Shown here: in pieces, positions 988-62,369 of the stretch
How the letters are laid out: each line of letters starts with the position of its first letter
How positions within the stretch are numbered: position 1 is the stretch's first letter
Assembly (NCBI GenBank): GCA_964638585.1
Contig: CAZXAN010000001.1
Coordinates: 23,454 to 87,453 of the forward strand
Direction of reading: 5' to 3'
Source: an uncultured Candidatus Saccharibacteria bacterium
GTDB lineage: Bacteria; Patescibacteriota; Minisyncoccia; Phycocordibacterales; Phycocordibacteraceae
Length of the DNA: 64,000 bases
Notes under the pieces: model-generated
Database searches by the model: none
What the model was told of the DNA's origin: nothing
Seen by the model: the letters and a program-made list of their open reading frames with translations, nothing else
Made by a program: the position numbers and the translations under genes

Positions 988-2801
988 ACACAGAACACAT
1001 ACGAAATTTCTCTATAGTTGCGCATGTTGACCACGGTAAATCTACGCTTGCTGACCGGTTACTGGAGCGCACTGGCACTATCCCAGACAGACTTATGCGT
1101 GACCAATTTTTGGACAGAATGGATCTGGAGCGCGAGCGCGGTATCACGATTAAGATGCAACCAGTCCGGATGAAATATAAAGAGTACGTGATGAATCTAA
1201 TAGACACGCCAGGACACATAGACTTTTCATATGAAGTTTCGCGTGCATTAAAAGCAGTTGAGGGGGTGCTTTTGCTCGTTGACTCTACACAAGGTGTTCA
1301 GGCGCAGACTCTGACGACTCTCGGCGCAGCAAGGGCTGCAAATTGCACTATCATCCCTGTCGTCTCAAAGATAGATTCTCCCGCAGCGAGAGTTCATGAG
1401 GTGAGCGCGGAGCTGGCAAAACTTTTAAAAGTATCTGTAGACGATGTGATAGCTGTGTCAGGTAAGACAGGAGAAGGTGTTGAGGAATTGCTAGAGGCAA
1501 TAATTAAGCGTATACCGCCGCCGACAAGGTTAAACCTTGCGAATTCTAAAGGTTTAACCTTGTCGGCGGAGCCACGTGGAATTATTTTTGATTTCTCATA
1601 TTCAACACACAGAGGTATCGCAGTGTACTTGCGCGTCTTAGATGGCACGTTCAAAAAAGGTCAACAATTAAGATTCCATTCGGCTCATAATGAGTTTATT
1701 GCACTAGAAACAGGCATATTTGCCCCAGAAGAAAAGGCTTCAGAAGAGCTGTCTGCAGGCGAAATAGGATACATCGTGACCGGCATCAAAGAGCCAGGTA
1801 TCGTTGGGGTAGGTGACACCATAGGTGCTGTACATGGCAAGCTAGCAGCTCTAGATGGCTATGAGAAGCCTAGACCGGTCGTATGGGCGTCTGTGTATCC
1901 AGAAAATCAAGATGATTTGCCGTTACTAAGAAAATCTCTAGAGAGACTGCGTCTCTCGGATTCTTCACTCTCGTTTGAGGAGGAATCGTCCGGAGTCTTG
2001 GGTAGGGGATTCAGATGTGGTTTTTTGGGCCTTCTGCACCTAGAAATAATCACAGAACGTCTGCGACGCGAATATAGTTTAAAACTGGTTGTCACAATTC
2101 CCACTATTTCATACGTAGTCACTAGAACAAACGGAACGCGAGAAACCATATACACTCCGTCACGGTTTCCAGAGCACGGCGACATAGCGAAGATAGAAGA
2201 GCCGTGGGCTAGAGTCATCATCATCACGCCTCCGTCGGTCGTCAGTTCTCTGATTCAACTTCTCTATGATCACGAGGCAAATACTATGGCAACAGAGTCG
2301 TACCAAGATGGGAGAATAGAGATGACTATAGAGATGCCGCTTCGCGAGCTCATGCGCGGATTCTTTGATAAATTAAAAAACATTTCTTCTGGTTATGCGT
2401 CTCTCTCATATGAGATACTCCCAGAGCGCGAGGCAGATGTAGCGAGACTAGATGTGTTGGTGGCCGAAGAGCCGGTCGCCGCATTTGCGCGCGTGGTCGC
2501 GCGCAGAAGGATAGTAGAAGAGGGAGAAAAAATGGTAGAAAAATTGCACTCAATCCTGCCGAAACAGCTTTTCAATACAAAGATTCAAGCAAAAGTAGAA
2601 GGGAGAATAGTCTCGTCACGTACTCTCTCTGCAATGCGAAAAGACGTTACTGGTTACTTATATGGAGGAGACGTCTCGCGCAAAAACAAGTTGCTTGATA
2701 AACAGAAGCGCGGTAAGAAGAAAATGCTAGAAAGGGGAACGGGTAAAGTAAATATACCCGAAGACGTCTTTATGAAAATGGTGCAGTCTTCTTCAGAGTA
2801 G
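984..2801 (+). CDS. lepA: Translation elongation factor 4 (LepA/EF4)
   Basis: The N-terminus reads NFSIVAHVDHGKSTLADRLL, a G1 P-loop, followed by DTPGHIDF. A full EF-G-like domain order is present and the length is about 600 aa. Confidence 0.95.
   Translation: MNTEHIRNFSIVAHVDHGKSTLADRLLERTGTIPDRLMRDQFLDRMDLERERGITIKMQPVRMKYKEYVMNLIDTPGHIDFSYEVSRALKAVEGVLLLVDSTQGVQAQTLTTLGAARAANCTIIPVVSKIDSPAARVHEVSAELAKLLKVSVDDVIAVSGKTGEGVEELLEAIIKRIPPPTRLNLANSKGLTLSAEPRGIIFDFSYSTHRGIAVYLRVLDGTFKKGQQLRFHSAHNEFIALETGIFAPEEKASEELSAGEIGYIVTGIKEPGIVGVGDTIGAVHGKLAALDGYEKPRPVVWASVYPENQDDLPLLRKSLERLRLSDSSLSFEEESSGVLGRGFRCGFLGLLHLEIITERLRREYSLKLVVTIPTISYVVTRTNGTRETIYTPSRFPEHGDIAKIEEPWARVIIITPPSVVSSLIQLLYDHEANTMATESYQDGRIEMTIEMPLRELMRGFFDKLKNISSGYASLSYEILPEREADVARLDVLVAEEPVAAFARVVARRRIVEEGEKMVEKLHSILPKQLFNTKIQAKVEGRIVSSRTLSAMRKDVTGYLYGGDVSRKNKLLDKQKRGKKKMLERGTGKVNIPEDVFMKMVQSSSE
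1518..1569. repeat. Perfect inverted repeat inside lepA CDS (21-bp arms ccgccgacaaggttaaacctt, 10-nt spacer containing GAATTC)
   Basis: Read directly: arms 1518-1538 and 1549-1569 are exact reverse complements. The repeat encodes an extra segment (TRLNLANSKGLTLSAEP) between the G domain and domain II, relative to canonical LepA. Confidence 0.8.
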
Positions 2802-3090
2802 AGAGATCGCGTCGACCATCGAACACACGGAGTATTCGAATACTTTCTGAGTCCATTGCTTGTTCATAGAAAACGATCCACGGTTTCATCGTAAAGCTAC
2901 GCGGGTTCCCAGCGAGCTCTTTATGCGTTCGGCCGATATCTGGCCAGTGAGCGAGCAGGGTAAATAGATGGTAGAAGCGCGTGAGAATTTTTTCTGCCAG
3001 AGTATCGTCGCTGACGAGTTCTAGATATTTTGCGAGCAAAGCAAGGTCATTTGTTGCTTCCTCCGAAAGAACAAAGTACGGCTCGCGCAT
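2770..3090 (-). CDS. parE: Type II toxin, ParE/RelE family
   Basis: 106 aa with the ParE-like pattern (..KPWIVFYEQAMDSESIRILRVFDGRRD..). It sits immediately downstream of a small ORF in classic antitoxin-toxin order. Confidence 0.65.
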   Translation of the reverse strand: MREPYFVLSEEATNDLALLAKYLELVSDDTLAEKILTRFYHLFTLLAHWPDIGRTHKELAGNPRSFTMKPWIVFYEQAMDSESIRILRVFDGRRDLSTLKKTAPFS

Positions 3091-3099
3091 GTGCGGATA

Positions 3100-3324
3100 T
3101 TATTTTATAGCAATCGCTCGTCGGAACTCCGCGTGAGTGCGTATCGTGGTTTTCTTGCCTCGCCGAAGCGATGCTCGCGCCGCCTTGAGCGCAGTATCAA
3201 GTGCGCGGAGATTGCGTGTTACGAATCGGCTCGTGAACGCTCCGTCTGCAGACGCTCCACGTCCACTTCCGCGAAGGTCCTGCTGATTGTAAGTAAGTGT
3301 CTTCATATGCAGAAAGTATAGCAT
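3100..3324 (-). CDS. Putative antitoxin partner of the ParE-like toxin
   Basis: 74-aa basic ORF directly upstream of the toxin, with a 9-bp gap. The family is not recognised from sequence; the call rests on position only. Confidence 0.4.
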   Translation of the reverse strand: MLYFLHMKTLTYNQQDLRGSGRGASADGAFTSRFVTRNLRALDTALKAARASLRRGKKTTIRTHAEFRRAIAIK

Positions 3325-3409
3325 ACCCTACCAGGCAAGCGGCACCATCCCCGAAGACGTCTTTATGAAAATGGTGCAGGAATCCAGCAATTGAGCCATT
3401 TTTTGGCTA

Positions 3410-3438
3410 TTGACTTACAGATTAAGGCATGATATGAT
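3410..3438 (+). promoter_or_regulatory. Sigma-70-like promoter (TTGACT-17 nt-TATGAT) for the 3488 gene
   Basis: The -35 TTGACT (3410-3415) and -10 TATGAT (3433-3438) have exactly 17-nt spacing. An AAGGA Shine-Dalgarno lies about 10 nt before the ATG at 3488. Confidence 0.45.
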
Positions 3439-3487
3439 GAACTTAACTCGGAATGGTCCGAGCCTTGCACATTGAAAGGAACAGCTC

Positions 3488-4213
3488 ATGAAAAAGTATG
3501 AGACAGTCCAAAACCCGCTTAGCGCGGGAGAAATTCGTGATTTACACTTGGCGGTCCTCGCGCAAATGCCGCTCAATCTTGATTCGGCAAAAGTGCGTGC
3601 CGATCTAAAAAGCAAGACCGCACTTGGTCGCGACCTCGGGAAGTTCTTCCGTGACCGCTACGCTCTGCAGACACTCGTCGACACTGCCGCGTGGATTGAC
3701 TTCTATCGCCGGACTTTCGGCAAAGAAGTCGACCTGACCAATCTGCACGTGCCAGCTAAGCCAGAGTACGAGTGCTGGCCGATCGTCATTGTGCAAGGCA
3801 TCTCGAACAATGATGCTTTTGACGCTTGCAAGAAACAGTTCGGCAAGGCGTGGCGGTATGTGGACGACCTCAACACGGTCCGCGATATCGTGAAGCGCCC
3901 CGACGGAGCATACGTGGTCTGGGTTAAGGCGAATATCGAAGCTGATCCCGACTGCGCAAATGTTTCGGCGGACATGATCGAGAAGTGTGCGCTCAACACG
4001 CTCACGCTTCGCGAACGGCTCGTCCTTGAGCTTAAGTACTTCGATGAAACAAAGTCGCATCTCGACATCAAAAACTGGACACTCTGCGCGGGCTCTCGGG
4101 ATGCGGGCGGCGACGTCCCGCGCGTGGGCTGGGGCGGCGACGGGTTGGGCGTCTACTGGTGCGGCGTTGGCGGCGCCAGCCCGTACCTCCGTGCCCGTGC
4201 AGCAGTTTCCTAA
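3488..4213 (+). CDS. Hypothetical protein (GC-rich, Gly/Ala-rich low-complexity C-terminus)
   Basis: 241-aa ORF with a good promoter, Shine-Dalgarno and a strong intrinsic terminator. No family recognised. Its GC looks much higher than the neighbours by eye, and the antisense ORFs across it are shadow ORFs. Confidence 0.5.
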   Translation: MKKYETVQNPLSAGEIRDLHLAVLAQMPLNLDSAKVRADLKSKTALGRDLGKFFRDRYALQTLVDTAAWIDFYRRTFGKEVDLTNLHVPAKPEYECWPIVIVQGISNNDAFDACKKQFGKAWRYVDDLNTVRDIVKRPDGAYVVWVKANIEADPDCANVSADMIEKCALNTLTLRERLVLELKYFDETKSHLDIKNWTLCAGSRDAGGDVPRVGWGGDGLGVYWCGVGGASPYLRARAAVS

Positions 4214-4279: not shown

Positions 4280-4312
4280 TGATATGAATAATAATTTTGG
4301 TATAGTAACTCA

Positions 4313-4789: not shown

Positions 4790-4937
4790 CACGGATAGAT
4801 AATGTGCCAGCCACGCAAGTTTTAACGCCAATACGTAAAATAGACTGTCTATGCAGGGTATTTCGTGTACTCAATAACGTGCCTACCAAGAAATTCCGTT
4901 CAGTTTATCCACAGACACAACGAGAATCGAACTTTCT

Positions 4938-14829: not shown

Positions 14830-15483
14830 ATGATTAAGCTTGTAATTATCGATATTGACGACACTCTCATTCTCACAGAGAAAGCTTGTTTTAAGGTTGA
14901 AAACAGGATTGCAGAAGGAATGGGATTCTTACCTATGAGCAGAGAAACTCATATGAAGAATTGGGGAACGCCGTTAAAAGAAGCTATAATCGAAAGATTT
15001 CCAGGAATTGATGCAGAAGTCTTTGCACAGAAACTAAAAGAACAATTGCCGGATTTGGTGAGAACCGGGGAGATGGACGCTGTAAGCGATACGAACGTTC
15101 AGACTCTAGAAGCTATAAAGAAACTAGGGAAACGACTAGCCATACTCACGTCACGAGAACTATATGAGATGGAACATCTCTTAGACACAACCCATGCGCT
15201 GAATGATAAGATAGAAGCTTTTTTTCACAAGGATAATTCTGACTATACAAAACCAAACCCGAAGGTGTTTGATAAGATTCTTAGTCACTTTAACGTTGCA
15301 CCTTCGGAAGCGGTGTATGTTGGGGATACTCTAAATGATGGTCTTTGTGCCAAAGCCGCAGGACTTCACTTCGTTGCTTTGTTGGAAAGTGGGCTAAAAA
15401 CGAAAATGGATTTTGCATCGGTTCCGGTCGATTATTTCGCGAATATATTCTCTGATGTAGTAAGTTACGTCAACGCCAACTGA
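14830..15483 (+). CDS. HAD-family hydrolase
   Basis: Motif I VIIDIDDTL (DxDxT), a later VGDTLNDGLCAKAAG motif, and a Rossmann-like layout. Confidence 0.75.
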   Translation: MIKLVIIDIDDTLILTEKACFKVENRIAEGMGFLPMSRETHMKNWGTPLKEAIIERFPGIDAEVFAQKLKEQLPDLVRTGEMDAVSDTNVQTLEAIKKLGKRLAILTSRELYEMEHLLDTTHALNDKIEAFFHKDNSDYTKPNPKVFDKILSHFNVAPSEAVYVGDTLNDGLCAKAAGLHFVALLESGLKTKMDFASVPVDYFANIFSDVVSYVNAN

Positions 15484-16936: not shown

Positions 16937-17222
16937 TTCAATCTCCTGTGGCGGGATGTTGATGCATTACGGACTTTCGTCATTATTGGTGCCTTCTCGC
17001 AGTTGCTTCAAGCGACGTTCCCAATAGATCGAACGAATCAGCAGGACAACCAGTATAATGACGCCTAAAATGGTAATGGTGGTATCAGACATCTGTGCTA
17101 CCTCCTAATCTCGGTTTCGGCCAATACAGACCTCTACAGTTAGGCTAGCATATCTGCTATTCTTGAGCCATGATTGTTCCAATATCTTCCCATTAAGCCT
17201 AATTATAGTAGAATATACATAT

Positions 17223-17828
17223 ATGCTCGTAGATCTCTCAGTCGAACTCAACGAAAAAACACCAATCTATCCGGGGGATCCCGAGACCAGGATTAATGCG
17301 GCGGGCGTTCTCGAAAATGACGGGTATCAGGACCATTATGTCTGTGTAGGTACCCATGTCGGTACACACATGGACGCACCGTCTCATATGGTAGCGGGAG
17401 GAAAGAATCTAGACGACTTTTCGCTCGCCCAATTTTCTGGTAATGGAGTCTACATAAAAACAGGAAGAAATTTTGATTTAAATGAGATTAGTAAAATTCC
17501 AATCAGTGCTGGCGATATTGTTCTGTTCCATACTGGTATGAGCGACGTGTATCACGAGAAGTCATATTATGACGACTACCCAGCGATTCCAGAAGAGGTC
17601 GCGAATTACCTCGTAGAGAGGAATGTAAAAATCGTCGGGGTTGATATGTGTAGTGTTGACCACCCGCCTTTCCCGGTTCATAAAATTCTGCTTAGTAAAA
17701 ATATTCTCATTATTGAAAATCTTACCAACCTAAGTGCTTTAGCAGAGAGGTCATTCAAGATTTACGCCTTTCCAATAAAACTTCAAATCGATGGGGCACC
17801 AGTGAGGGTGGTTGCTGAAACTGAATAA
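17223..17828 (+). CDS. Cyclase-family protein (kynurenine formamidase-like)
   Basis: GTHVGTHMDAPSHM is the metal-binding His cluster of the putative-cyclase family. Start placed at the internal Met MLVDLSVELN. Confidence 0.75.
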   Translation: MLVDLSVELNEKTPIYPGDPETRINAAGVLENDGYQDHYVCVGTHVGTHMDAPSHMVAGGKNLDDFSLAQFSGNGVYIKTGRNFDLNEISKIPISAGDIVLFHTGMSDVYHEKSYYDDYPAIPEEVANYLVERNVKIVGVDMCSVDHPPFPVHKILLSKNILIIENLTNLSALAERSFKIYAFPIKLQIDGAPVRVVAETE

Positions 17829-17831
17829 AGG

Positions 17832-17857
17832 TTCCAACATCGTCCAAGACGGCCAGC
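17832..17857 (+). promoter_or_regulatory. Conserved intergenic motif copy 1 (ttccaaCATCGTCCAAGACGGCCAGC), 4 nt after the cyclase stop
   Basis: The same 22-nt core recurs at 18551-18576. A degenerate copy at 19351-19377 is located from 7 nt after the proB stop. Confidence 0.6.
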
Positions 17858-17881
17858 TAATCATTTTGCTATACTCACCCA

Positions 17882-18544
17882 ATGAAACTTCTGCTTACAT
17901 CGAACGGTCTCGCTAACAAATCTATTATCGCGGCTCTCTTTGAATTGGCGGGGAAACCCGCCGGAGAGATGAATGTCGTTTTTATTCCAACGGCAGCAGA
18001 TGCCGAGGAGGATGACAAATCGTGGCTTATCAATGATCTCGTAAATATACAGAAACAGGATTTTAAACAAATCGATATTGTTGATATCGCGGCTCTGCCT
18101 AAAGAGTCATGGCAACCGCGTCTTGAACATGCGGACATTCTTTTTTTTGGCGGCGGCCATACTCGTCACCTCGTACACTGGTTTAAGAAATCGGGACTTG
18201 CAGATATTCTTCCTGAACTTCTCAAAACGCGGGTGTATGTTGGAATTAGCGCAGGCAGCCTTGCAACGGGACCATCACTTGCTCTAAGCAGTTCCACTGA
18301 TGCGCCGTTTGACTACAACGACGATATCCCGTACGACGGGAAAGGCCTGCATTTGGTCAACTTTCATGTTCGCCCGCACTTCAACTCACCGGACTTTCCG
18401 AACGCGCGCACAGAGTATCTACGAGAAAAGGCCAAAGAAGTACCTGAAGCCATATACTGTCTCGATGATCAGTCTGCTCTAAAAGTAATTGACGACAACG
18501 TAGAAATCGTAAGCGAAGGGGAAACCCTAGTTTTTAACAAATAA
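17882..18544 (+). CDS. pepE: Peptidase E-like (S51 family dipeptidase)
   Basis: 220 aa with a GISAGS nucleophile motif and an S51 fold pattern (FFGGGHT..). Confidence 0.7.
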   Translation: MKLLLTSNGLANKSIIAALFELAGKPAGEMNVVFIPTAADAEEDDKSWLINDLVNIQKQDFKQIDIVDIAALPKESWQPRLEHADILFFGGGHTRHLVHWFKKSGLADILPELLKTRVYVGISAGSLATGPSLALSSSTDAPFDYNDDIPYDGKGLHLVNFHVRPHFNSPDFPNARTEYLREKAKEVPEAIYCLDDQSALKVIDDNVEIVSEGETLVFNK

Positions 18545-18550
18545 GAATCG

Positions 18551-18576
18551 TTCTAACATCGTCCAAGACGGCCAGC
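18551..18576 (+). promoter_or_regulatory. Conserved intergenic motif copy 2 (ttctaaCATCGTCCAAGACGGCCAGC)
   Basis: Identical 22-nt core, 7 nt after the pepE stop and 6 nt before the proB ATG. Confidence 0.6.
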
Positions 18577-18582
18577 AAATTT

Positions 18583-19344
18583 ATGAAACGAATCATTGTA
18601 AAAATAGGAACTAAAGTTCTCACAAAAAGTGATGGTACACTTGATATTGAATTTCTAAAACACATTGTCGATCAAATAGTGGAGCTGCGCAAAAAGGGTC
18701 TGCAGGTGGTGCTAATAACATCAGGAGCAGGTAGTGCAGGCAAGAGTTTGGTGTCATTGCAGGGCATACAATCTGAGACCGTACGAAAGCAAGTGTTTGC
18801 TGCTGTCGGCCAAGTAAAGATCATGAGTACCTATGCTGAGTTGTTTAGGGAATACGGCTTCTACTGTGCACAAGTATTAGCCACTAAGGAAGACTTCCGG
18901 GATGAACAACATTACACAAATATGCAAAATTGTTTTGAAGGATTGTTGCTCGATAACGTAATACCCGTGGTTAACGAGAACGATGTAGTAGCTACCACCG
19001 AACTCCTCTTTACTGACAACGATGAGCTCGCTGGTCTTGTGTCGCAACAACTAAAAGCCGATTTCCTGGTACTCCTTACCAGCACCGACGGTATTCTGGA
19101 TGCCAACCATAAAACTATTTCCAAGGTGGACTCATCTAATGCCAAGACGGTGATGGGGTATATCACTCCGGATAAGTCCACGGGCGGACGGGGAGGAATG
19201 ACCTCAAAGTTTACTGTGGCTAAAGAATTGTCTGAGAAAGGAATATCTGTACATATAGTTGACGGGAAAAAAGAAAACATCCTCTTAGATATAGCAAATG
19301 GAGAAACTACAGGCACTCACTTTATTCCTCAGGCAGGAGTTTAG
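18583..19344 (+). CDS. proB: Glutamate 5-kinase (PUA-less)
   Basis: Collinear with ProB throughout: RIIVKIGTKVLT.., VVLITSGAGSAG, VIPVVNENDVVAT, TDNDELAGL, GGMTSK. There is no PUA domain, and no proA nearby. Confidence 0.8.
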   Translation: MKRIIVKIGTKVLTKSDGTLDIEFLKHIVDQIVELRKKGLQVVLITSGAGSAGKSLVSLQGIQSETVRKQVFAAVGQVKIMSTYAELFREYGFYCAQVLATKEDFRDEQHYTNMQNCFEGLLLDNVIPVVNENDVVATTELLFTDNDELAGLVSQQLKADFLVLLTSTDGILDANHKTISKVDSSNAKTVMGYITPDKSTGGRGGMTSKFTVAKELSEKGISVHIVDGKKENILLDIANGETTGTHFIPQAGV

Positions 19345-19350
19345 GTGAAG

Positions 19351-19377
19351 TTCCGCGTCGTCCCAAATGGCCATCTC
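19351..19377 (+). promoter_or_regulatory. Conserved intergenic motif copy 3, degenerate (ttccgCGTCGTCCCAAATGGCCATC), followed by TATAAT
   Basis: About 17 of 22 core positions are shared with copies 1 and 2. TTGTTATAAT lies 12 nt before the ATG at 19400. Confidence 0.45.
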
Positions 19378-19399
19378 GTAAATTTGTTATAATTCAAAC

Positions 19400-20020
19400 A
19401 TGAAAAAGAAGATACAAGTGCTCCTCATTCATGGTGGCGAGACCTTTAAGAACAAACGGGATTACATGAAGTATCTAAGGACTAGGCCAGTTGTGGCCGT
19501 GGCGAGAAGGCGTTGGGCGGCCGAGTATCTCGATAAGAATCTGGGTAAAGGATTTGAGATAATCAGGCCACGAATGCCACTTCAAGAGAATGCTCAGTAT
19601 GAGGACTGGAAGATTTATTTCGAACGGCATCTGCCCCTTCTCAGAAGCAAGTTTATCCTCATCGGAAATTCGCTCGGTGGAATATTCCTCGCGAAGTATC
19701 TCTCCGAAAATAAGTTGTCTAAGAAAGCACTCTCGACGTATCTCACCTGCGCACCCTTCGACAATACATTGCCGAGAGAAGATCTGGTTGGCGGGTTCAC
19801 TCTGAAAGCGGACCTATCGCTCATCGAGAAGAACACCAAGAATCTCCACCTACTCTTCTCTGGTGACGACCCCGTGGTGCCCGCTGCTCACGCCGAGAAA
19901 TATAGGAAGAAATTAAAAAATGCACACATTGTCGTTTATAAAAGCAAGAACGGTCACTTTATGGTGCCATCCTTCCCAGAAATCATCAAAATGATCAAAC
20001 TAGATATCAAAGAATCGTAA
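19400..20020 (+). CDS. Alpha/beta-hydrolase (YdeN/RBBP9-like serine hydrolase)
   Basis: GNSLGG nucleophile elbow and an approximately 200-aa esterase fold. Confidence 0.55.
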   Translation: MKKKIQVLLIHGGETFKNKRDYMKYLRTRPVVAVARRRWAAEYLDKNLGKGFEIIRPRMPLQENAQYEDWKIYFERHLPLLRSKFILIGNSLGGIFLAKYLSENKLSKKALSTYLTCAPFDNTLPREDLVGGFTLKADLSLIEKNTKNLHLLFSGDDPVVPAAHAEKYRKKLKNAHIVVYKSKNGHFMVPSFPEIIKMIKLDIKES

Positions 20021-25751: not shown

Positions 25752-27917
25752 CTATTCTACCACGGGCCATTTGGCGATCATTAAGTATTTAGAGTCTTTC
25801 GTTGGCAGGGACTGATATATTTCTTCAGTGATGAATGGCATAAATGGGTGGAGGAGCTTAAGCGAGTTCTCCAAGATATAGTAAAGCGTCGCAGCGTATC
25901 CATCCTTGCCCTTGCTCTCCTCAATAATTTCGTCCGCAAAGCGATGCCAAAGATAGTGATAGAGTTTCTCTCCGGCCATATAAATGCGAAATTCTTCAAT
26001 GTCGTTCGTAACGTCCACAATGAGCGCATCAAATTCGGCTTTCAACTCTTCCTTAATGTCTCCCGAGCGTTCTTGTGAGAGAACAAAACGCGCGATATTC
26101 CAAAGCTTGTTCGCGAAGTGTTTGTAGCCCTTTACCTTGTCCTCGCTGATGCGCATATCTGTACCAGGAGTGTTGCCAACAACTAGCGCCATACGCGCAG
26201 CATCTGCTCCAAACTTCGCCGATACGTCAAGCGGATCCATATTGTTGCCGAGCGATTTGCTCATCTTCCTTCCAGACGCATCGCGCACAAGGCCGTGCAA
26301 GTACACTGTTTTAAACGGGATAGTGCCGAGTGTAAATTTAGTCATAAGTATCATGCGCATGACCCAGAATGGCAAAATGTCATAGCCAGTCTCCAACAAG
26401 TCAGTCGGATGATAATTAACAAAATCATTTTCTGGTCCTGGCTTGCCCCGCGTAGCTTCAGCGAAGTGGGGCCAGCCGAGAGTAGAAAACGTCCACAGAC
26501 CAGAAGAGAACCATGTGTCTAGAGTGTCCTCGTCTTGAGTCCACGTGCCCTCCATAGCTTCAGCGACGGAGGGGCCATCTCCGACTTTTATATCTTCTCC
26601 CTTGTACCAAACAGGCACGCGATGTCCGTACCATATTTGCCTACTGATGCACCAGTCGCGAAGGTTTTCTACCCAGTGTAAGTATGTTTTCTCAAAATAT
26701 TCTGGAATTATTTTTATCTCGTTAGATCGTACAGCATCTATAACAAGCTCTTTCAGCGTCTTATCACGTTCAGGAATTTTTATATTCACATCAATAAACC
26801 ATTGGAGTTTAATCTGCGGCTCGATGATACCGCCAGTTCTCTCTGCAGTAGAAATATTGTGTATGTAGTTCTCATCAACTTTAACCAACAGTCCCTTATT
26901 CTTAATCTTGTCGACGATTTTTGGACGGGCCTCTGCTATTTTCATTCCAGAAAACTCTCCGGCAGCGGGGAGAAGCCTTCCTCTCTCATCAATTATTTGC
27001 TCCCTATCAAGTTCGAATTTTTCAGCCAGCTCGAAGTCGTGTGCAGAATGCCACGGGGTGATGGTCATTGCACCCGACCCGAATTCCATATCCTGCTCCG
27101 GATCGTGTATAACCGTTGCAGTAATCGGGCCGTTGATCCACTCGAGGTCAATCTTTTGACCATGTGCAAACTGTTTGTACCGTGCATCTTTAGGATTGAT
27201 AACGACGTATTTATCACCAAACTTTGTTTCCGGTCTGACGGTGCCAATAACAAATGGTCCGTATTGAAAATAATAAAATGGCGCTTTCTCCTCAACGTAC
27301 ACAACCTCGTCGTCTGAAATAGTTGTCTGGCCCTTTGGGTCCCAGTTCACGATGCGATGTCCGCGATATATAAGGCCGGCGTCATACATCTTTTTAAATA
27401 CCGTATTCACTGCGCGATTACGCGCCGTGTCTAGTGTAAATGCTTCGCGCGACCAATCAAGCGAGGCGCCCATCGTCTTCAGTTGATTCACAATAGTGTC
27501 ATGACTCTCGCTCGCAAATTTCTCAATCCGCTTCAATAGTTCTTCGCGACCCAGTTCGTGTCTGTTTTTCCCCTCCTCTTTTTTAATCTGTTTCTCCACA
27601 ACCGACTGTGTCGCGATGGCGGCATGGTCGGTGCCTGGTACCCAGAGTGTCCTAAAACCTCGCATTCTCTTATAACGCACAAAGACGTCCTCAATCGCGA
27701 GCATCAGCGCGTGACCCATGTGGAGCCTCCCGGTCACATTTGGCGGTGGCAGAACGATTGAATATGTAGGAGCGTCGGCCGTAGTCACTCCCTGTCTCAC
27801 GCACTCGTCGGGGTTGAAGAGTCCTCTCTTCTCCCATTCGGCATAGATGCGCGCCTCGGTGGCGCTCGGGTCGTAGGGCTTTAAAAACTTCTCATCCATT
27901 GAATAAAAATATACCAT
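25752..27917 (-). CDS. valS: Valine--tRNA ligase (compact form, lacks C-terminal coiled coil)
   Basis: PPPNVTGRLHMGHA (HIGH region) and KMSKSLGN, with a class-I editing domain in between. 721 aa. Confidence 0.9.
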   Translation of the reverse strand: MVYFYSMDEKFLKPYDPSATEARIYAEWEKRGLFNPDECVRQGVTTADAPTYSIVLPPPNVTGRLHMGHALMLAIEDVFVRYKRMRGFRTLWVPGTDHAAIATQSVVEKQIKKEEGKNRHELGREELLKRIEKFASESHDTIVNQLKTMGASLDWSREAFTLDTARNRAVNTVFKKMYDAGLIYRGHRIVNWDPKGQTTISDDEVVYVEEKAPFYYFQYGPFVIGTVRPETKFGDKYVVINPKDARYKQFAHGQKIDLEWINGPITATVIHDPEQDMEFGSGAMTITPWHSAHDFELAEKFELDREQIIDERGRLLPAAGEFSGMKIAEARPKIVDKIKNKGLLVKVDENYIHNISTAERTGGIIEPQIKLQWFIDVNIKIPERDKTLKELVIDAVRSNEIKIIPEYFEKTYLHWVENLRDWCISRQIWYGHRVPVWYKGEDIKVGDGPSVAEAMEGTWTQDEDTLDTWFSSGLWTFSTLGWPHFAEATRGKPGPENDFVNYHPTDLLETGYDILPFWVMRMILMTKFTLGTIPFKTVYLHGLVRDASGRKMSKSLGNNMDPLDVSAKFGADAARMALVVGNTPGTDMRISEDKVKGYKHFANKLWNIARFVLSQERSGDIKEELKAEFDALIVDVTNDIEEFRIYMAGEKLYHYLWHRFADEIIEESKGKDGYAATLYYILENSLKLLHPFMPFITEEIYQSLPTKDSKYLMIAKWPVVE

Positions 27918-43752: not shown

Positions 43753-43849
43753 GCAGGCATTGTACGCGTATGTTTGTAGAGCGCAAGCCCAGCACCAAAT
43801 TTTTTAGAAAAAAGTTGGTGCTGGATGAATTTTTTGCTATGATAAGCGT

Positions 43850-44733: not shown

Positions 44734-44849
44734 CGAGTTTTGAGGATATCAGATGTCCACAAAACTACTCAAAAAAGCCTGATTGGTGCTTGATTTCAAT
44801 ATCGTCGCGCTCATAACGCCCAAGAATCACATCTCTTGAGAATTCTTTA

Positions 44850-45663
44850 GTGAGGGACGTCTAACGTCCCTCACTCGAAGGACCCGGTGCTGTGTAGTGC
44901 AGAGTCGTCAGGTATATTGCGGCCGAGAATCACGTCTCGGGCGTACTCGCGGTAATCATCTGGACTGTAAAGCGATGTAAGGAACTTCTTGTCGACAATT
45001 GGCCGATTGAAAGTTCCAACATAATCACCTAGGCTCGAATACGGATATGCACTCGCCCAGGCATAGGCTTCGTTAAAGTTACTCCGCGCCCAATTGTAGC
45101 CCTTAGGGTGAACATCGAATGCGTTTTTCACTTGGATGTACGCCGATACGTATCGGAAATAATTGTCATCGTCCACAGTTCGCGCACAATATGAACCTTG
45201 GAAGAGGGATCCTTTTTCACAATAGCGTTCGTTAAATTTCTTTGCCATCCCGGTGCCTAGACGATGCATAAAGCGTACGACACCACCTTCCTTGATTTCC
45301 TGGAGCAGAAGGTGAAAGTGATTCTCGACGAGTCCAAAAGCGACTAGTCCAACATGTGAATCACGTTCTGGCCAATGAGGTGGCCGCTCGAAGGTTCGGT
45401 GAACGTGAGCGTCATATAAATCGCGATGCCAATTTGGAGAAGTGAAGCTGTCGTTGAAGTGAGTCAGCATCAGCAAGAATCTGAATCGATCTGCCTCATC
45501 ACGAACGATAGGTAATCCTCGCGTTCCTCGTTGAACGACGTGAACGTACGACCCAATGCTGAACGGCTCCTTCCGCATACACCAATCATACACGACCTGA
45601 GGGACGTTAGACGTCCCTCAAATGTCCTTGTGTGCATAAGTGAGGGACGCTAAGCGTCCCTCA
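44850..45663. mobile_element. REP-RAYT unit: IS200-like tyrosine transposase flanked by three REP palindromes
   Basis: GAGGGACG-N5-CGTCCCTC at 44850-44874 overlaps the RAYT stop. GAGGGACG-N5-CGTCCCTC at 45598-45620 lies 5 nt upstream of the start. GAGGGACGC-N3-GCGTCCCTC sits at 45641-45663. Confidence 0.7.
44871..45593 (-). CDS. REP-associated tyrosine transposase (RAYT; IS200/Y1-transposase-like)
   Basis: YVHVVQRGTRG..FLLMLTH.. and the HUH motif ENHFHLLLQE, then FMHRLGTGMAKKFNERYCEKGSLFQGSYCAR (catalytic Tyr region) and WARSNFN..SSL. Collinear with PF01797-type RAYTs. Confidence 0.75.
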   Translation of the reverse strand: MYDWCMRKEPFSIGSYVHVVQRGTRGLPIVRDEADRFRFLLMLTHFNDSFTSPNWHRDLYDAHVHRTFERPPHWPERDSHVGLVAFGLVENHFHLLLQEIKEGGVVRFMHRLGTGMAKKFNERYCEKGSLFQGSYCARTVDDDNYFRYVSAYIQVKNAFDVHPKGYNWARSNFNEAYAWASAYPYSSLGDYVGTFNRPIVDKKFLTSLYSPDDYREYARDVILGRNIPDDSALHSTGSFE

Positions 45664-54412: not shown

Positions 54413-54859
54413 ATGCAACAAACATTTACACAAACGTTCTCGTACGGTTTTAGTAGCGGATTTGGTGGTCCATATGCAACTGCGTGTGGGACAAACTATT
54501 TCTGCAGTCTCGCAAACATCATTATTAACACCATTAATGGCGTTCTCGTCCCACTTCTCTTCGCAATTGCATTTATCGTATTTCTATATGGCATAGCCAA
54601 GGCCTACATATTTTCTGGTGGCGAACCAGACAAGGTGAGCGAGGGACATAAGCTGATACTCTGGGGCTTGGTAGCCTTTGCCGTGATGATATCTGTATGG
54701 GGGCTTGTAAATATTGTCGCATACAGCTTCGGCCTCAATGGCTCTTATGCACCGCCAACTCCGACCTCGTATTCTGGGCAAAGTGTTCCTGGCACGTATG
54801 GTGGACAACCGCCAGGGTATTTAGAATGTCCGAAAAAGCCAGACGGGTCTTGTATCTAA
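54413..54859 (+). CDS. Pilin-like small protein P3 (Gly/Ser-rich N-terminus, Cys-containing C-terminal tail)
   Basis: Core IINTINGVLVPLLFAIAFIVFLYG..EPDKVSEGHKLILWGLVAFAVMISVWGLVNIV. Tail ..PPGYLECPKKPDGSCI. Confidence 0.6.
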   Translation: MQQTFTQTFSYGFSSGFGGPYATACGTNYFCSLANIIINTINGVLVPLLFAIAFIVFLYGIAKAYIFSGGEPDKVSEGHKLILWGLVAFAVMISVWGLVNIVAYSFGLNGSYAPPTPTSYSGQSVPGTYGGQPPGYLECPKKPDGSCI

Positions 54860-54875
54860 TCTATATAAATAAAAT

Positions 54876-55397
54876 ATGAAAAAAATCTCACTCCTCATTA
54901 CAATTCTCGCACTAGCTACGTCCTTTTCTATTCCAGTGGCTACCTCTGCTGTAGGTGTTGATGGCGCTTGCGATGACACTCTTGCCAGGTGTGACAGTGG
55001 TCTCACATGTTCTCTCGGTAAATGTTCTGTAGTTGGCGTTGGCCCAGGAAATACAGGAAATACAGGAAATGCTGGCAACAGTGGAACTGGTGGCACCCCA
55101 GGTAGCATCAATCAGACATACCTGACTTATTACTACACCCTCATCTTAACGATAATTAACTCATACCTCGTCCCGATACTTATCGCCATAGCATTTATAG
55201 TGTTCTTGTATGGCGTATACGAATACTTCATCCTCGGTGCCGCAGAAGAGGATAAGCGCAAAGAGGGTAGACAGTTCGTCTTGTGGGGAGTTATCGGCTT
55301 CGTCATAATAGTTTCGATCTGGTCTATTGTGAATATAGTTCAAAGCACGGTGATACCTGCAGGGCAGAACAACCGTCCGACCTATCCGACTCTATAA
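54876..55397 (+). CDS. Pilin-like small protein P4 (signal peptide, Cys-rich plus GNTGNTGNAGNSG repeat variable region)
   Basis: Signal peptide MKKISLLITILALATSFSIPVATSA, 6 Cys, a Gly-Asn-Thr repeat, then core IINSYLVPILIAIAFIVFLYG..EEDKRKEGRQFVLWGVIGFVIIVSIWSIVNIV. Confidence 0.6.
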   Translation: MKKISLLITILALATSFSIPVATSAVGVDGACDDTLARCDSGLTCSLGKCSVVGVGPGNTGNTGNAGNSGTGGTPGSINQTYLTYYYTLILTIINSYLVPILIAIAFIVFLYGVYEYFILGAAEEDKRKEGRQFVLWGVIGFVIIVSIWSIVNIVQSTVIPAGQNNRPTYPTL

Positions 55398-55481
55398 AAC
55401 CTTATCCACACAGGGCGTTATAGAGCATTGACCGCAGTGCTAGAAAAGCTACAATTATCTCATTATTCGTTTATTTGTATT

Positions 55482-55853
55482 ATGAAAAAAACACTTGCCA
55501 TTACTTCTTTAACAATCGCATCGTTTGCCGTACCGCTAGTGTCTATGGCCGCTGTTAGCAACCTTTCAGAGTTTGGAGGGTTTATTATCGGTATCATCAA
55601 CAATATTCTCGTACCGGTACTCTTCGCCATAGCATTTATCGTCTTCTTGTGGGGCGCATTCTCGGTCTTTATTCTTGGACACGACTCTGAAGAGACAAAG
55701 GAGAAGGGTAAGAATCTTATGCTATGGGGTCTTATTGGTTTCTTCGTCATGGTCTCTGTGTGGGGTCTCGTTAACCTGCTTACTGGCTCTATCCAGTTTG
55801 GCAATCCAGCTCAACAGACTCCTCCTGCCGCTCGAGGTACACAGCCTATATAA
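55482..55853 (+). CDS. Pilin-like small protein P5 (signal peptide plus 2-TM core)
   Basis: Signal peptide MKKTLAITSLTIASFAVPLVSMAAVS, then core IINNILVPVLFAIAFIVFLWG..SEETKEKGKNLMLWGLIGFFVMVSVWGLVNLL. The track ORF starts earlier at a TTG at 55428. Confidence 0.6.
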   Translation: MKKTLAITSLTIASFAVPLVSMAAVSNLSEFGGFIIGIINNILVPVLFAIAFIVFLWGAFSVFILGHDSEETKEKGKNLMLWGLIGFFVMVSVWGLVNLLTGSIQFGNPAQQTPPAARGTQPI

Positions 55854-58234: not shown

Positions 58235-60682
58235 TTATTTCAAATACTCGGAGGCTTCGGCAGGAGTGAGAGAGTCTGGAGAGACAGAGTCGGGGAGGTA
58301 GATGCGGCGGAGGCCCTTTTTTAGGAATACACCCTGCTTAGATTTATAGAGTACAAGTGATTTGCCGGTGCGCGGATGTTTACCGATTTCTTTTACTATT
58401 TCTACACCCTTTGGAGGTTTCTTTGGTTCGGCGAGGAGGGTGAGAGCCTGATCAAGCGTGATAGTGTATGGGTCGCCGATCTTGGCCTTGAGCGAGCGGA
58501 ACTCGCCATCGCTGCCGACATAGGGGCCGAATCGGCCGGTGTTTGAAAACACTGCCTTGCCAGTTGATGGATGATTGCCGAGCTCGCGCGGGAGAGATAG
58601 GTAACGCACAGCATCTGCGAGAGTTACCTGCGACAGGTCAGTGCCTTTAGGAATACTTGCTCTCTTGGCGGCAACTCGTGGTCGTCCTCGACCACGTTTG
58701 CCGCCACCCCGCGAAGCTTTAGCGGAGTGGGGTTTTTCGTCACGCGCCCCCTTCGCTGAAGCTTCGGAGGGCCGCAGCATCTCTACATATGGCCCGAATC
58801 TCCCTGTTTTTATGTAGATTGCTTCGCCAGTGTCGGGGTGATTACCAATCGGCTCGTCCTGCTTTAGCTCGTGACCGTCTTCTGTCCGCGCGCCCATACA
58901 ATCCGGATACTTTTTACAACTCATAAAGACACCGCCACGGCCGAGCTTGTTCTCCATCGGGCTCCCGCAGAGCGGGCAGGGGAACTCAGCTCCAGAGTCG
59001 CCGAGCGATGTTGCCTTCGGGAGTTTATCTTTCGCTCGTACTGCCTTTTCAAACGGTCCATAAAATTCCGTGAGCGTTTCTGTATATCCGCGCTCGCCAC
59101 GCGCTATTTCGTCCAACTCGTCCTCCATTTCTGCAGTGAAGGTGTCGCTCACATAGGTGGCGAAATTTTCTTCAAGCCATCCAGATACGACCATACCGGT
59201 GGCAGTGGGCTGGAGCGCTCTCGCCACCTTCTCCACATATCCGCGATCTTGAATCGTCTTCATGATAGAAGCATAGGTTGATGGTCTGCCAATCCCTCTC
59301 TTTTCTAGTTCTTTAATTAATCCAGCTTCGGTGTATCTATTCGGTGGCTCGGTCTGCTTCTCTTCTGCGCCAAGAGAGATAAGAGATAGTGGATCGCCGA
59401 CAGCAAGCTTCGGCAGTTCAACATCTTCGCCTCGCGCTTTTGTGTCCAGCGCGAGCCAGCCGGGGAATAGTAGTCGCGAGCCGTTCGCGGTAAAGATGAC
59501 TCCTTGCTGCAAGGTGTCACCCTTACACACGACACCCGTGCGCATAATTCGCGCAGCCTTCATCTGCGAGGCGAGTGCGCGCGTGCGGATTAGCTCGTAG
59601 AGTTGTGTCTCATCAGGCGTGTTACCAGCGCGCGCGAGCGATGGGTTTGTCGGGCGGACAGCCTCGTGCGCCTCCTGCGCATTCTTACTCGTTGTCTTAT
59701 ACACGCGCACTTGTACATAGTCTTTACCAAAATCTTTTTCAACCACGTTCGCTATTTTCGCGACCGCCTCTGCGCCGAGATTTACCGAATCGGTGCGCAT
59801 GTAGGTGATATGGCCAGCTTCGTAGAGCTTCTGCGCGGCGCTCATTGTCCTTGAAGGCGCGAAGCCGAGTCGTGTAGAGGCAGTTTGCTGGAGTGTAGAC
59901 GTAGTGAAGGGCGGTCGCGGATTTCTGTCCTCTTCTTTCTCTACGACGTCTGCCACACTCCAGTTAGCACTTTTGCCTGCATTTACTATTCTATCTGCCT
60001 CTTCCTTCGTCGCCGGCTGTTCAACGCAGGTCGTGGCTAGCTCGCCAGTTTTTGATTTGAAAAGTGCCGAGAGTATGAAATAGGTGACAGGATCGAAAGC
60101 CTTAATCTCGCGTTCGCGCTCCGCGAGTATCCGGAGCGCGGGGGACTGCACTCTGCCAGCAGACAGCCCGTAACGGACCTTTTTCCAGATTAGCCCAGAC
60201 AAGTCATAGCCCACTATACGGTCCAGTACACGCCGCGCTTCTTGCGCGCGGCGCAGATTCTCATCTATATCGCGCGGATGCGCAATCGCATCTTTAATAG
60301 CATCCTCGGTAATTTCATGATACACAACGCGTTTTATAGGTTTGTTTTTTGACTTTTGAGATTTGGTACTTCCGAGCTCTTCCTGTATTAGCTCGGCGAT
60401 ATGCCACGCTATCGCCTCGCCCTCGCGGTCGGGGTCGGTCGCCAGATATATCTCGTCTGCTTTTTCTGCTGCTCGCTGTATCTTCTCTATTACCTCCAAC
60501 TTCCCAGGTGACACGACATAGCGCGGGATAAACCCGCCTTCAATATCCACAGCGTCTTTATTACTCTTCGGCAAGTCGCGGACGTGACCAACCGAGGCAA
60601 TGACCTCATAGTCTTTACCTAAATATTTCCCTATAGTCCTCGCCTTCGTCGGCGATTCTACTATTAATAATCTCTTACTCAT
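58235..60682 (-). CDS. topA: DNA topoisomerase I
   Basis: [22 protein letters not shown] (TOPRIM), a catalytic Tyr domain, and C-terminal zinc-ribbon-like repeats (CPLCGSPM.., GRFGPYV). Confidence 0.95.
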
Positions 60683-61507: not shown

Positions 61508-62346
61508 GCGCCGAATTCCTCGCGGATGAGCCCGCGGAGTTCGAGAGCGACGAGGGCGGTGAGAAGCTCTCCTGCGGAAGTTTGACTTCCGCGAAGAATT
61601 TCATCCCGCGTCTTTGGCTCTTCTAGCATATTCCATACAACGAGCTCGGCGTCTTCTAGGTCACTCGGTGCGGTGAGTGAGGCAGACTCACGCGGGGCGA
61701 TATGAAGTGCTTCTAGGATGTGTAGCGGGTCAGACACGAGCGCAGCGCCGAGGCGGATAAAGAGATGCGAGCCGAAGGCGTGTGGGTCGCCGATGCGGTG
61801 GGGGATAGCGAGCAGGTCGCGATTATATTCTCCCGCTAAGCGAGCAGTGATGAGCGTACCGGATTTTTGCCCGGCTTCTATAATTAGCACTGCGTCAGAG
61901 ATCCCGACCATGATGCGATTACGCTCGGGGAAGTAGTAGACGCGCGAGGGTTCGTCAGGTGGATACTCCGACAAGAACCCACCGCCTTTTTCTAGAATTT
62001 CTTTTGCAAAGGGGCGATTACTTCTTGGATAGAGCACATTATCGCCAAGTCCTGAACCCGGCACAACTAATGTATGCAAGCCAGCAGAAAGCGCAGCTTT
62101 GTGCGCGCAAGTATCAGTACCGAGCGCCAGACCAGAAACTATAGAAACTGGATAACCAGATAAACCAGTAATTAATTTCTCGCACGCCTCTTGCCCATAG
62201 CGCGTCATAGCGCGTGAGCCCACTACCGTAAGTAGCTTGTGCCCAGCAGGTGGCAGAGCACCCCTTACCCACAGCCTTTTGGGCGGTTGCGGTATCTCCA
62301 GCAACTGCCCCGGCCACTCTGTGCGTTCAAGTTCGCGAATCTCCAT
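61492..62346 (-). CDS. dprA: DNA-processing protein A (DprA/Smf)
   Basis: VVGSRAMTRYG..IVSGLALGTDTCAHKAAL..GGGFLSEYP is the Rossmann-like DprA core. Confidence 0.85.
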   Translation of the reverse strand: MEIRELERTEWPGQLLEIPQPPKRLWVRGALPPAGHKLLTVVGSRAMTRYGQEACEKLITGLSGYPVSIVSGLALGTDTCAHKAALSAGLHTLVVPGSGLGDNVLYPRSNRPFAKEILEKGGGFLSEYPPDEPSRVYYFPERNRIMVGISDAVLIIEAGQKSGTLITARLAGEYNRDLLAIPHRIGDPHAFGSHLFIRLGAALVSDPLHILEALHIAPRESASLTAPSDLEDAELVVWNMLEEPKTRDEILRGSQTSAGELLTALVALELRGLIREEFGAWHRT

Positions 62347-62369
62347 GTGTGCAGTATAATACGTAGAAC

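Follow-up and report, generated by a model that had tools for sequence, protein, structure and literature searches.

The 64,000-nucleotide stretch of Candidatus Saccharibacteria DNA analyzed here (contig CAZXAN010000001.1; hereafter called the window) carries a short motif behind the stop codons of consecutive genes, and we found that this motif belongs to a family of DNA elements that recurs across the Patescibacteria. With modest confidence, we favor the reading that the element is an attC-like recombination site of tRNA-Gln-anchored cassette arrays. A DNA-level role of any sort at the cassette junctions is probable, since the polarity of the arrays, the tRNA-Gln anchor and the cassette breakpoints all point there. 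The window itself contains a small and partly decayed array, which reads W0, cyclase, W1, pepE, W2, kinase, W3, hydrolase, with W0 to W3 being the copies of the element (Table 1).

The 20-mer CATCGTCCAAGACGGCCAGC occurs exactly twice in the 64 kb, both times on the plus strand (17838-17857 and 18557-18576), and it was not found in any of 100 dinucleotide-preserving shuffles of the window when up to 3 mismatches were allowed. If the preceding GTTC(C/T)AA is included, W1 and W2 share 26 of 27 bases, and their ungapped similarity amounts to 87% across 38 nt (repeat family D12). For W1, nhmmer yielded an E-value of 4e-10. The third copy (W3, GTTCCGCGTCGTCCCAAATGGCCATC) matches about 21 of the 27 core positions of the family with one 1-nt gap. 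It has GTTCC, TCGTCCCA and GGCCA in common with W1 and W2 and differs by the gap and several changes. Taken alone, W3 is not significant (E = 21) and it is backed by its position, not by its score. The combination TCGTCC-N4-6-GGCCA is present at only three places in the window, which are W1, W2 and W3. Upstream of the cyclase gene we detected a fourth, more decayed copy (W0, GTTCCAATATCTTCCCATTAAGCC; fuzzy match, nhmmer E = 12), which had been overlooked in the earlier note on this DNA and which is counted only for its array-junction position and the strand it has in common with the other copies. Pattern, fuzzy and HMM (hidden Markov model) scans revealed no copies beyond these four in the window. 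The recurrence behind stop codons that the earlier note had described is therefore real, with two near-identical copies, a decayed third and, in addition, a decayed fourth one. Its gene calls (cyclase, pepE, proB) agree with the Pfam assignments Cyclase, Peptidase_S51 and AA_kinase, and the motif as delimited there starts 4, 7 and 7 nt after the upstream stop codons as claimed. The distance from the end of this motif to the next start codon varies as it had stated, but its range of 6 to 30 nt was slightly too wide since we measured 24, 6 and 22 nt.

Within the window, the motif is placed between each stop codon and the next promoter. W2 is followed by no promoter, since only 6 nt separate it from the kinase ATG at 18583 and this interval lacks a -10 hexamer. 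W1 and W2 both read CAA (A at window positions 17846 and 18565), whereas all of the approximately 289 other family copies read CCA, and the decayed W3 retains this CCA. Because the private substitution is common to both sites and was seen in no other copy, the sequences suggest that, in this lineage, one site was copied into or exchanged with the other or that gene conversion took place between them. The G+C content of the array genes (0.41-0.47) was uninformative when compared with the window mean of 0.474 (standard deviation 0.043).

When 185,579 species genomes were searched with the degenerate 21-mer TCGTMCMAGACGGYCAGCWAA, we obtained matches in 29. The full element is present in 26 of them, which are, by record title, Nomura-, Kaiser- and Adlerbacteria, Paceibacterota, Parcubacteria, seven Saccharibacteria and some entries titled "bacterium". 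The remaining three matches (Dehalococcoidia, Roseiarcus, Comamonadaceae) look like chance because the upstream GTTC part is missing. In each genome, all 21-mer matches fall in one stretch of at most 8 kb. A stricter 27-mer pattern retrieved at least 120 loci from the JGI metagenomes, and an HMM built from the first instances yielded 289 copies at 146 loci plus the window (E at most 0.01). These loci are each no longer than 14 kb and come from Saccharibacteria and Paceibacteria-type genomes; they and other compared contigs carry L numbers as labels (L008, L018 etc.). The earlier note had recommended a genome-wide search combined with an analysis of positional bias, and in the family the copies usually lie within 12 nt of a stop codon. 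The conserved part measures 27-37 nt and the conservation profile consists of an A-rich leader, the core GTTC[CGT][AC]A[CT][AGT]TCGT[CA]CCAGACGG[CT]CAGC and a following WAA. The invariance of the core is partly imposed by the search patterns, and its variable positions are shown by the additional copies found with the HMM. In the literature searched, including a full-text search on the motif sequence, we found no description of such arrays in Patescibacteria.

The element is organized in polar arrays. In the HMM set, 58 loci carry multiple copies (2-10 elements each), and among the 146 loci and the window none has elements on both strands. The median spacing between elements is 674 nt, and 71 of 141 intervals contain exactly one open reading frame (ORF) on the same strand. 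In 15 intervals only an opposite-strand ORF is present (e.g., L015, L032). Because the polarity of the array stays the same when the cassette ORF is inverted, a messenger RNA 3' signal is unlikely. Locus L018 consists of 11 consecutive plus-strand genes, each with an element at or just after its stop codon, and there the next leaderless gene begins 20-50 nt beyond the element. In other genomes, a same-strand ORF ends at most 150 nt upstream of the element in 53 of 66 instances and, in 29 of those 53, not more than 12 nt from GTTC, so that the link to the upstream gene end proposed in the earlier note holds across the family. The next ATG follows after 2 to 183 nt, mostly after 20 to 90 nt (66 instances).

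The cargo of the cassettes comprises unrelated small enzymes and unknowns (NUDIX, HAD, GNAT, S51, HIT, methyltransferases, pilin-like proteins). In most cassettes, TGnTATAAT stands 6-8 nt ahead of the ATG, the W2/kinase junction being an exception. Many genes of the window, including those after W0, W1 and W3, show the same type of -10 hexamer at this distance, and because it stands so close to the ATG and no Shine-Dalgarno sequence is present, leaderless mRNAs are implied. Examples of this arrangement are found at window positions 4298-4312, 17867-17881, 19385-19399, 43835-43849 and 62346-62360 (minus strand). Other genes of the window have clear GGAG-type ribosome-binding sites.

In their cargo and in their variability between genomes, the loci resemble cassette arrays. 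Orthologues of pepE with 75-83% identity are located in four different genomic neighborhoods, and what they share with the window stops at the stop codon. Between identical flanks, the gene number of L008 exceeds that of L009 by about ten. Downstream of the serine hydrolase gene of the window no element was found within the window, and its homologues (63-67% identity) in L068, L091 and L106 are followed by an intact element 8-9 nt past the stop codon. In L068 and L091 this homologue is the first cassette after tRNA-Gln. Seven contigs of the same strain are identical to the window, and the kinase gene is identical in all of them. The names given to homologous proteins assign the organism to Patescibacteria/Paceibacterota.

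A tRNA-Gln gene forms the head of many arrays. ARAGORN recognized 44 tRNA genes in 821 kb of element-bearing loci and 35 of these were tRNA-Gln genes, from approximately 30 different sequence contexts. Without exception, these 35 precede all elements of their own locus on the same strand. Where 2 kb or more of sequence precede the first element (56 loci), tRNA-Gln lies within 2.5 kb in 19 cases. The first cassette begins directly after the tRNA-Gln end ...CAGC(CA). The element itself resembles the T-loop (GGTTCGAAT/GGTTCCAAC) and the 3' terminus (...CCA-G-C) of tRNA-Gln. Between T-loop and 3' end it is 5 nt longer than the tRNA, and the sequence in common is confined to GGTTCNAAY and ...CCAGC. 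As the ARAGORN and Rfam tRNA models remained silent on the element and as its length differs, we rejected the idea that it is a plain copy of a tRNA or transfer-messenger RNA (tmRNA) 3' end. From its sequence, the element appears to be tRNA-like and not a tRNA fragment. In L077 and L135, the trailer after the last element is the same as the trailer after tRNA-Gln, and in the arrays of 6 of the 35 loci the elements are interspersed with exact copies of at least the last 13 nt of tRNA-Gln.

The genes upstream of the anchor vary (dnaX, pyrG region, GIY-YIG). In the related genome L009, the region syntenic with the end of the window reads SerRS - Dus - dnaX - tRNA-Gln - array. In three samples, the contigs of the source population break off no more than about 360 nt past dnaX and, because L009 carries tRNA-Gln and an array at this place, these ends hint at a repeat or variable region that breaks assemblies.

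Several loci contain non-coding units of about 140-220 nt after tRNA-Gln or after the last element. They start with the complement of the tRNA-Gln 3' end, contain GGA(C/T)TCGAA and several hairpins, and their final 13 nt or more exactly repeat the end of the tRNA-Gln of the locus. We observed them in L135 (1699-1882 on the element strand), L077 (after the tRNA end at 277 and after the element at 4536), L082 (minus strand, about 3090-2905), L040 (6994-7131), L068 (ending at 1586), L104 (ending at 4887) and L148 (ending at 905). Neither a tmRNA nor an Rfam family nor an ARAGORN call was obtained for these units. Cassettes follow them as they follow tRNA-Gln, and they may constitute an undescribed tRNA-like RNA or an alternative anchor site.

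Four comparisons place the cassette boundary at the 3' end of the element. First, a hydrolase cassette with 98% identity follows tRNA-Gln in L091 and a tRNA-Gln-like unit in L082. The homology extends from ...GTCCTAGTCTCGCAGCCAG into the downstream element, where both sequences diverge just before CAGC. Second, the pepE cassette of the window and its L011 orthologue are homologous from position 17854, with the stretch from CAGCTAAT to the ATG being conserved, to 2 nt past the stop codon. Third, L026 contains two paralogous cassettes whose homology begins after the CAGC of the preceding element and ends directly after CCAGC. Their ORFs are 85% identical and their elements match at 27 of 27 positions, which suggests selection on the site. 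Fourth, L034 and L035, which come from different lineages, share an 80%-identical unit of promoter, ORF and decayed element, and an intact element precedes each of them.

On the reading that we favor, a 27-nt asymmetric DNA site with an A-rich leader would close each single-gene cassette, which would consist of promoter, ORF and element. Many arrays start directly at the 3' end of tRNA-Gln, whose T-loop and 3' terminus the element mimics. A trans-acting site-specific recombinase may join the element of a circular cassette to the tRNA-Gln 3' end, to a tRNA-Gln-like unit or to a resident element, with the crossover inside the terminal CAGC or immediately 5' of it. With each capture, one set of promoter, ORF and element would be added and the older cassettes would be pushed away from the tRNA, as at the attI site of an integron or in a tRNA-anchored island. 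The family membership, the layout and polarity of the arrays, the tRNA-Gln anchor, the positions of the breakpoints and the lack of RNA structure are observations, whereas we infer that recombination at the element is enzymatic and still active, and the same holds for the choice of enzyme. A more far-reaching version of this idea, which we put forward only tentatively and with considerable doubt, is that Patescibacteria have their own gene-capture system distinct from integrons. In such a system, self-promoted single-gene cassettes would be captured at tRNA-Gln or tRNA-Gln-like units and reshuffled by an enzyme that acts in trans and recognizes tRNA-like DNA, maybe without any classical integrase, and this would be a main route of accessory-gene flux in these reduced genomes.

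Patescibacteria (candidate phyla radiation) have tiny genomes with few recognized mobile elements, and their acquisition of accessory genes is poorly understood. A searchable 27-nt marker would allow the flexible gene pool of this phylum to be cataloged from metagenomes, would help to explain the assembly breaks at these loci and would define a biochemical target, namely the enzyme that recognizes the site. If the reading is true, the arrays would represent a second, independently evolved integron-like system with a sequence-defined site and with cassettes that bring their own leaderless promoters. It might also provide a handle for gene insertion in the few cultivable Saccharibacteria.

A number of observations weigh against a dedicated recombination site. 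When W1, W2 and one copy from L021 were folded as DNA (both strands), the z-scores were between -1.1 and -0.2 and no attC-like hairpin was obtained. The inverted repeat in the element comprises 4 bp only, which is unlike the core sites of tyrosine recombinases. We found neither a circular intermediate nor a clean presence/absence polymorphism between near-identical strains, and the sole strain-level difference (L023 vs. L078) is a replacement at a decayed element and not a clean cassette indel. The estimate of conservation is partly circular, since the search patterns fix many of the core positions. The strict pattern gave no match in the viral contigs of IMG/VR. A loose 18-mer gave 12 matches there, which we take as chance because all of them lack the upstream GTTC part and 11 are located in phage contigs with 54-68% G+C, and on these grounds we also rejected a phage attP site. 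As far as the window is concerned, it contains no tRNA-Gln gene in its 64 kb, so that its array is not adjacent to this tRNA. Because W0 and W3 are decayed and the array lies away from tRNA-Gln, it may be old or relocated, and with two of its four junctions decayed it may also be inactive.

The search for a recombinase adds to these objections. No recurrent integrase family was present among the Pfam families of 149 ORFs, and the sole recombinase cluster recognized among the 30 largest clusters (1086 ORFs) was a large serine recombinase, which occurs at 3 loci only. An intI gene was recognized neither in the 149-ORF Pfam scan nor in the 30 largest clusters, and with loci of at most 14 kb a distant intI may exist. 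The small GIY-YIG nucleases are the most recurrent neighbors of the arrays. These proteins of about 80 amino acids (aa) form the largest ORF cluster near the arrays, with 13 copies in 12 of 146 loci, and 12 of the 13 are co-oriented with the elements. In L119 and in the L021/L121/L147 lineage, tRNA-Gln comes immediately after this gene, which in several lineages ends about 20 nt short of the tRNA. In L008 and L009 it is found at the far end of the array. Neither the GIY-YIG proteins nor the serine recombinase were assigned a recombinase role, since neither of them is general enough. The GIY-YIG genes are located at 3996-4250 in L021, 1608-1850 in L119, 5487-6230 in L134, 7213-7455 in L008 and 6719-6961 in L009, and they are also present in L121, L147, L023, L029 and L069. 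In L134 (element strand), a large serine recombinase split in two ORFs (2384-3965) stands beside tRNA-Gln (2373-2444). Together with small genes and an Xre-type helix-turn-helix (HTH) gene it is located directly 3' of tRNA-Gln and before the first cassette, and this group looks like a separate integrative element that uses the same hotspot.

The main rival within a DNA-level view is that the elements are passive. They would be scars or homology patches derived from 3' fragments of tRNA-Gln, and cassettes would be swapped by ordinary homologous recombination over the 27-nt identity and the neighboring genes, for instance after natural transformation, without a dedicated recombinase. Such a scenario, which we regard as unlikely, would account for the lack of a recombinase linked to the arrays, for the likeness of the element to the T-loop and 3' end of tRNA-Gln, for the exact partial tRNA-Gln copies interleaved with the elements and for the many decayed copies (W0, W3 and many weak nhmmer matches). 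The private substitution of W1 and W2 is also what gene conversion would give. However, scars should decay and should follow their own tRNA-Gln, whereas the same 27-nt core is found from Saccharibacteria to Paceibacteria while the acceptor arm of tRNA-Gln varies. The L026 paralogues, with the element unchanged beside an ORF of lower identity, indicate selection on the site, and the three mapped breakpoints cluster at the 3' end of the repeat instead of being spread across it. Moreover, 27 nt is at or below the length that is usually required for efficient RecA recombination.

Somewhat less probable still is an RNA-level element of the 3' untranslated region, which would act as a processing, stability or factor-dependent termination signal, perhaps as a tRNA-like mimic for enzymes of the tRNA 3' end, and which would set apart genes that are expressed independently. 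The copies stand directly after stop codons and are mostly co-oriented with the upstream gene, a new promoter often comes next or else a terminator hairpin in which their CAGCAAA serves as one arm, and their ends are T-loop-like and ...CCA-G-C-like. However, the structural data do not support this idea. The folding energies of three window copies, calculated as RNA and as DNA, were at the level of shuffled sequences (z-scores from -1.1 to +1.2), and RNAalifold analysis of 150 instances yielded -0.76 kcal/mol and zero covariation. The earlier note had suggested a functional CGTC-caa-GACG hairpin, but its fourth (innermost) pair is A-G in 50 of the 150 copies, so that the only stem is broken by an uncompensated C-to-A change. 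No Rfam family matched the element, and the E-value mode applied to 17100-19500 of the window and to L018 gave only chance-level matches elsewhere. At the gathering threshold, Rfam 15 reported 7 tRNAs and nothing else in the window, and a terminator scan detected no intrinsic terminator at the three junctions. On the basis of the fold z-scores, the RNAalifold data and the Rfam searches, we rejected a functional hairpin or structured RNA, and the conserved RNA structure for which the earlier note had advised a test was not found. A general RNA signal is also difficult to reconcile with one array per genome and with only four adjacent sites in a 64-kb window in which some 78 ORFs of 80 aa or more were called. 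In addition, an RNA signal should not keep its polarity when the cassette ORF is inverted, and it leaves the tRNA-Gln anchor and the breakpoints within the element without explanation. Among the roles listed in the earlier note, a protein-binding site remains the likeliest molecular candidate, whereas an RNA processing or stability site and an attenuator found no support.

The element could also be the operator of a transcription factor or an upstream element of the promoters of a small neighboring regulon, which we consider very improbable. GGCCA is located 19 nt before the -10 hexamer in both W1 and W3, and palindromic operator-like repeats are present at other Patescibacteria junctions (L008 ACAAGGTCCGACCTTGT, L173 ATTCGCGCGAAT). 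On the other hand, the -10 hexamer stands at no constant distance from the element (16 to 26 nt or more, depending on the genome) and W2 lacks a promoter, so that a promoter or -35 element was rejected and the earlier note was right to set aside a conventional promoter box. Many copies precede terminators or convergent genes, the downstream genes are unrelated, and no conserved dyad or direct-repeat symmetry is seen in the element.

A hidden coding sequence, in which a conserved peptide (G-S-N-I/V/F-V-P-D-G-Q-Q) would be reached by frameshift or readthrough or would be the relic of a gene end, is hardly credible and was rejected (GSNIVPDGQQ frame), because, although 4 of the 6 most variable core positions are third codon positions of one frame and none is a second one, this frame is always short, is never part of a long ORF and has no start codon, its phase to the upstream stop codon is random (0, 1 and 2 roughly equal), and the third positions of CCA, GAC and CAG are nearly invariant across diverged lineages, which is unlike synonymous sites.

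The recombination-site reading was compared with known systems. Integrons and CALINs (clusters of attC sites lacking integron integrases) share several properties with the arrays. Both consist of co-oriented, mostly single-ORF cassettes with unrelated accessory functions, and among the arrays this is seen in the 11 genes of L018 and in the 58 loci without strand mixing. A conserved site is located at or near each stop codon, the crossover is inferred to fall on the 3' edge of this site, and an anchor is present at one end of the array. Some ORFs are inverted, arrays exist without an adjacent integrase, and sedentary chromosomal integrons have near-identical attC repeats. An attC site spans 57-141 nt, is built as an inverted repeat with imperfect arms (R''-L''...L'-R') and forms a hairpin when single-stranded. 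In contrast, the Patescibacteria element has 27-37 nt, is asymmetric and lacks the R''/L''-L'/R' hairpin, and it is conserved phylum-wide in sequence, whereas attC is conserved in structure only. The anchor of an integron is attI next to intI, whereas here it is the 3' end of tRNA-Gln, with no recurring IntI-like gene. Integron cassettes are generally promoterless and are expressed from Pc, whereas nearly every cassette of the arrays has its own leaderless promoter. Since there is no hairpin and no intI was found, we rejected an identity with attC.

The pdif modules of Acinetobacter plasmids resemble the arrays in that one or a few genes are located between XerC/XerD sites of about 28 bp, on which a host-encoded, unlinked recombinase is thought to act. 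A pdif site, however, has two 11-bp inverted arms with a 6-bp spacer and alternates in orientation, whereas the element is without symmetry and always in direct orientation. Repetitive extragenic palindromic (REP) sequences and bacterial interspersed mosaic elements, which are mobilized by REP-associated tyrosine transposases, are also short repeats (20-40 nt) just past stop codons. REP sequences, however, are imperfectly palindromic and are scattered over both strands in tens to hundreds of copies, often as inverted pairs. The element has no palindrome beyond 4 bp, is clustered in one polar array and never occupies both strands of a locus, and a REP-like repeat was rejected since the element is neither palindromic nor dispersed.

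The tycheposons of Prochlorococcus grow from the 3' side of one specific full-length tRNA gene, with tRNA-derived repeats between the units, newer units expected next to the tRNA and niche or accessory genes as cargo (bioRxiv 10.1101/2020.12.28.424599), and the arrays appear similar in these points. Tycheposons are, however, multi-kb elements equipped with a tyrosine recombinase and replication genes of their own, and as repeats they have simple partial copies of the tRNA (bioRxiv 10.1101/2020.12.28.424599). The arrays are built of one-gene units, about 0.3-1.3 kb long, whose functions are enzymatic or unknown and which lack an integrase. The repeat in the arrays, a diverged mimic of the tRNA, exceeds the tRNA segment by 5 nt and is common to distant lineages with differing tRNA-Gln. 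The closest concepts are integron arrays/CALINs and tRNA-anchored islands. The element departs from the former in structure and in the lack of an integrase and from tycheposons in lacking a self-encoded integrase and probably also in not being a plain partial tRNA copy; exact partial copies of tRNA-Gln are present in the arrays of 6 of the 35 loci.

The coordinates of the array features in the window are given in Table 1.

Table 1. Features of the cassette array in the window (positions refer to the 64-kb stretch)
Feature	Position	Strand	Basis or remark
W0, decayed element GTTCCAATATCTTCCCATTAAGCC, head of the array	17174-17199	+	Fuzzy match, weak nhmmer
Promoter-like TTCCCA-16-TAGAAT of the cyclase gene	TAGAAT at 17209-17214	+	Hexamer 8 nt before ATG
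Cassette 1 ORF, putative cyclase (PF04199), 201 aa, likely leaderless	17223-17828	+	Pfam
W1, intact element: A-rich leader AAAG, 27-nt core GTTCCAACATCGTCCAAGACGGCCAGC (17831-17857), TAA	17827-17860	+	nhmmer
Extended -10 TGcTATACT of the pepE cassette	17867-17875	+	6 nt before ATG 17882, leaderless
Cassette 2 ORF, S51 peptidase (Peptidase_S51, pepE-like), 220 aa	17882-18544	+	Pfam
W2, intact element: core GTTCTAACATCGTCCAAGACGGCCAGC (18550-18576), then AAA	18546-18579	+	Pattern and HMM
Cassette 3 ORF, amino-acid kinase (AA_kinase, ProB-like), 253 aa	18583-19344	+	Pfam
W3, decayed element GTTCCGCGTCGTCCCAAATGGCCATC	19350-19375	+	Fuzzy match, nhmmer E = 21
Extended -10 TGtTATAAT	19385-19393	+	6 nt before ATG 19400, leaderless
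Cassette 4 ORF, serine hydrolase (PF06821-like), 206 aa	19400-20020	+	Pfam

The serine hydrolase gene is followed by a tight run of genes, for which Pfam assigned tRNA_bind, GDSL, PIG-L, glyoxalase and tRNA_edit.

Some repeats of other types were seen in the window and in the compared loci. A duplicated junction (C)ACAAGGTCCGACCTTGTAATTCTGGTATAGT is present in L008 (5960-6000, 6675-6715) and L009 (5960-6000), and it is located upstream of pepE as well as of the MazG-like gene that comes next. With its 8-bp perfect palindrome directly before a promoter, it looks like an operator rather than a cassette element. In L173, which represents the same population as the window (region downstream of SerRS/dnaX), the sequence TCTAATTCGCGCGAAT..GAATAG, which combines a 12-bp palindrome with a -10-like hexamer, stands on either side of an ArsR-like HTH gene (14905-14935, 15226-15256). 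Three copies of a 71-nt repeat (65-75% identity) were found at window positions 54545-55678 within small tandem genes, which are T4SS_pilin-like paralogues as judged from L173. Two families of G+C-rich hairpins, TGCCCCGCGTAGCTTCAGCGAAGTGGGG-like (26444-26573, 58705-58732) and AGTGAGGGACGTCTAACGTCCCTCA-like (44849-44873, 45596-45663), are probably terminators unrelated to the cassette element. Finally, an S-adenosylmethionine (SAM) riboswitch (RF00162, 49.7 bits) is located next to the distal end of the L135 array (3070-3173).

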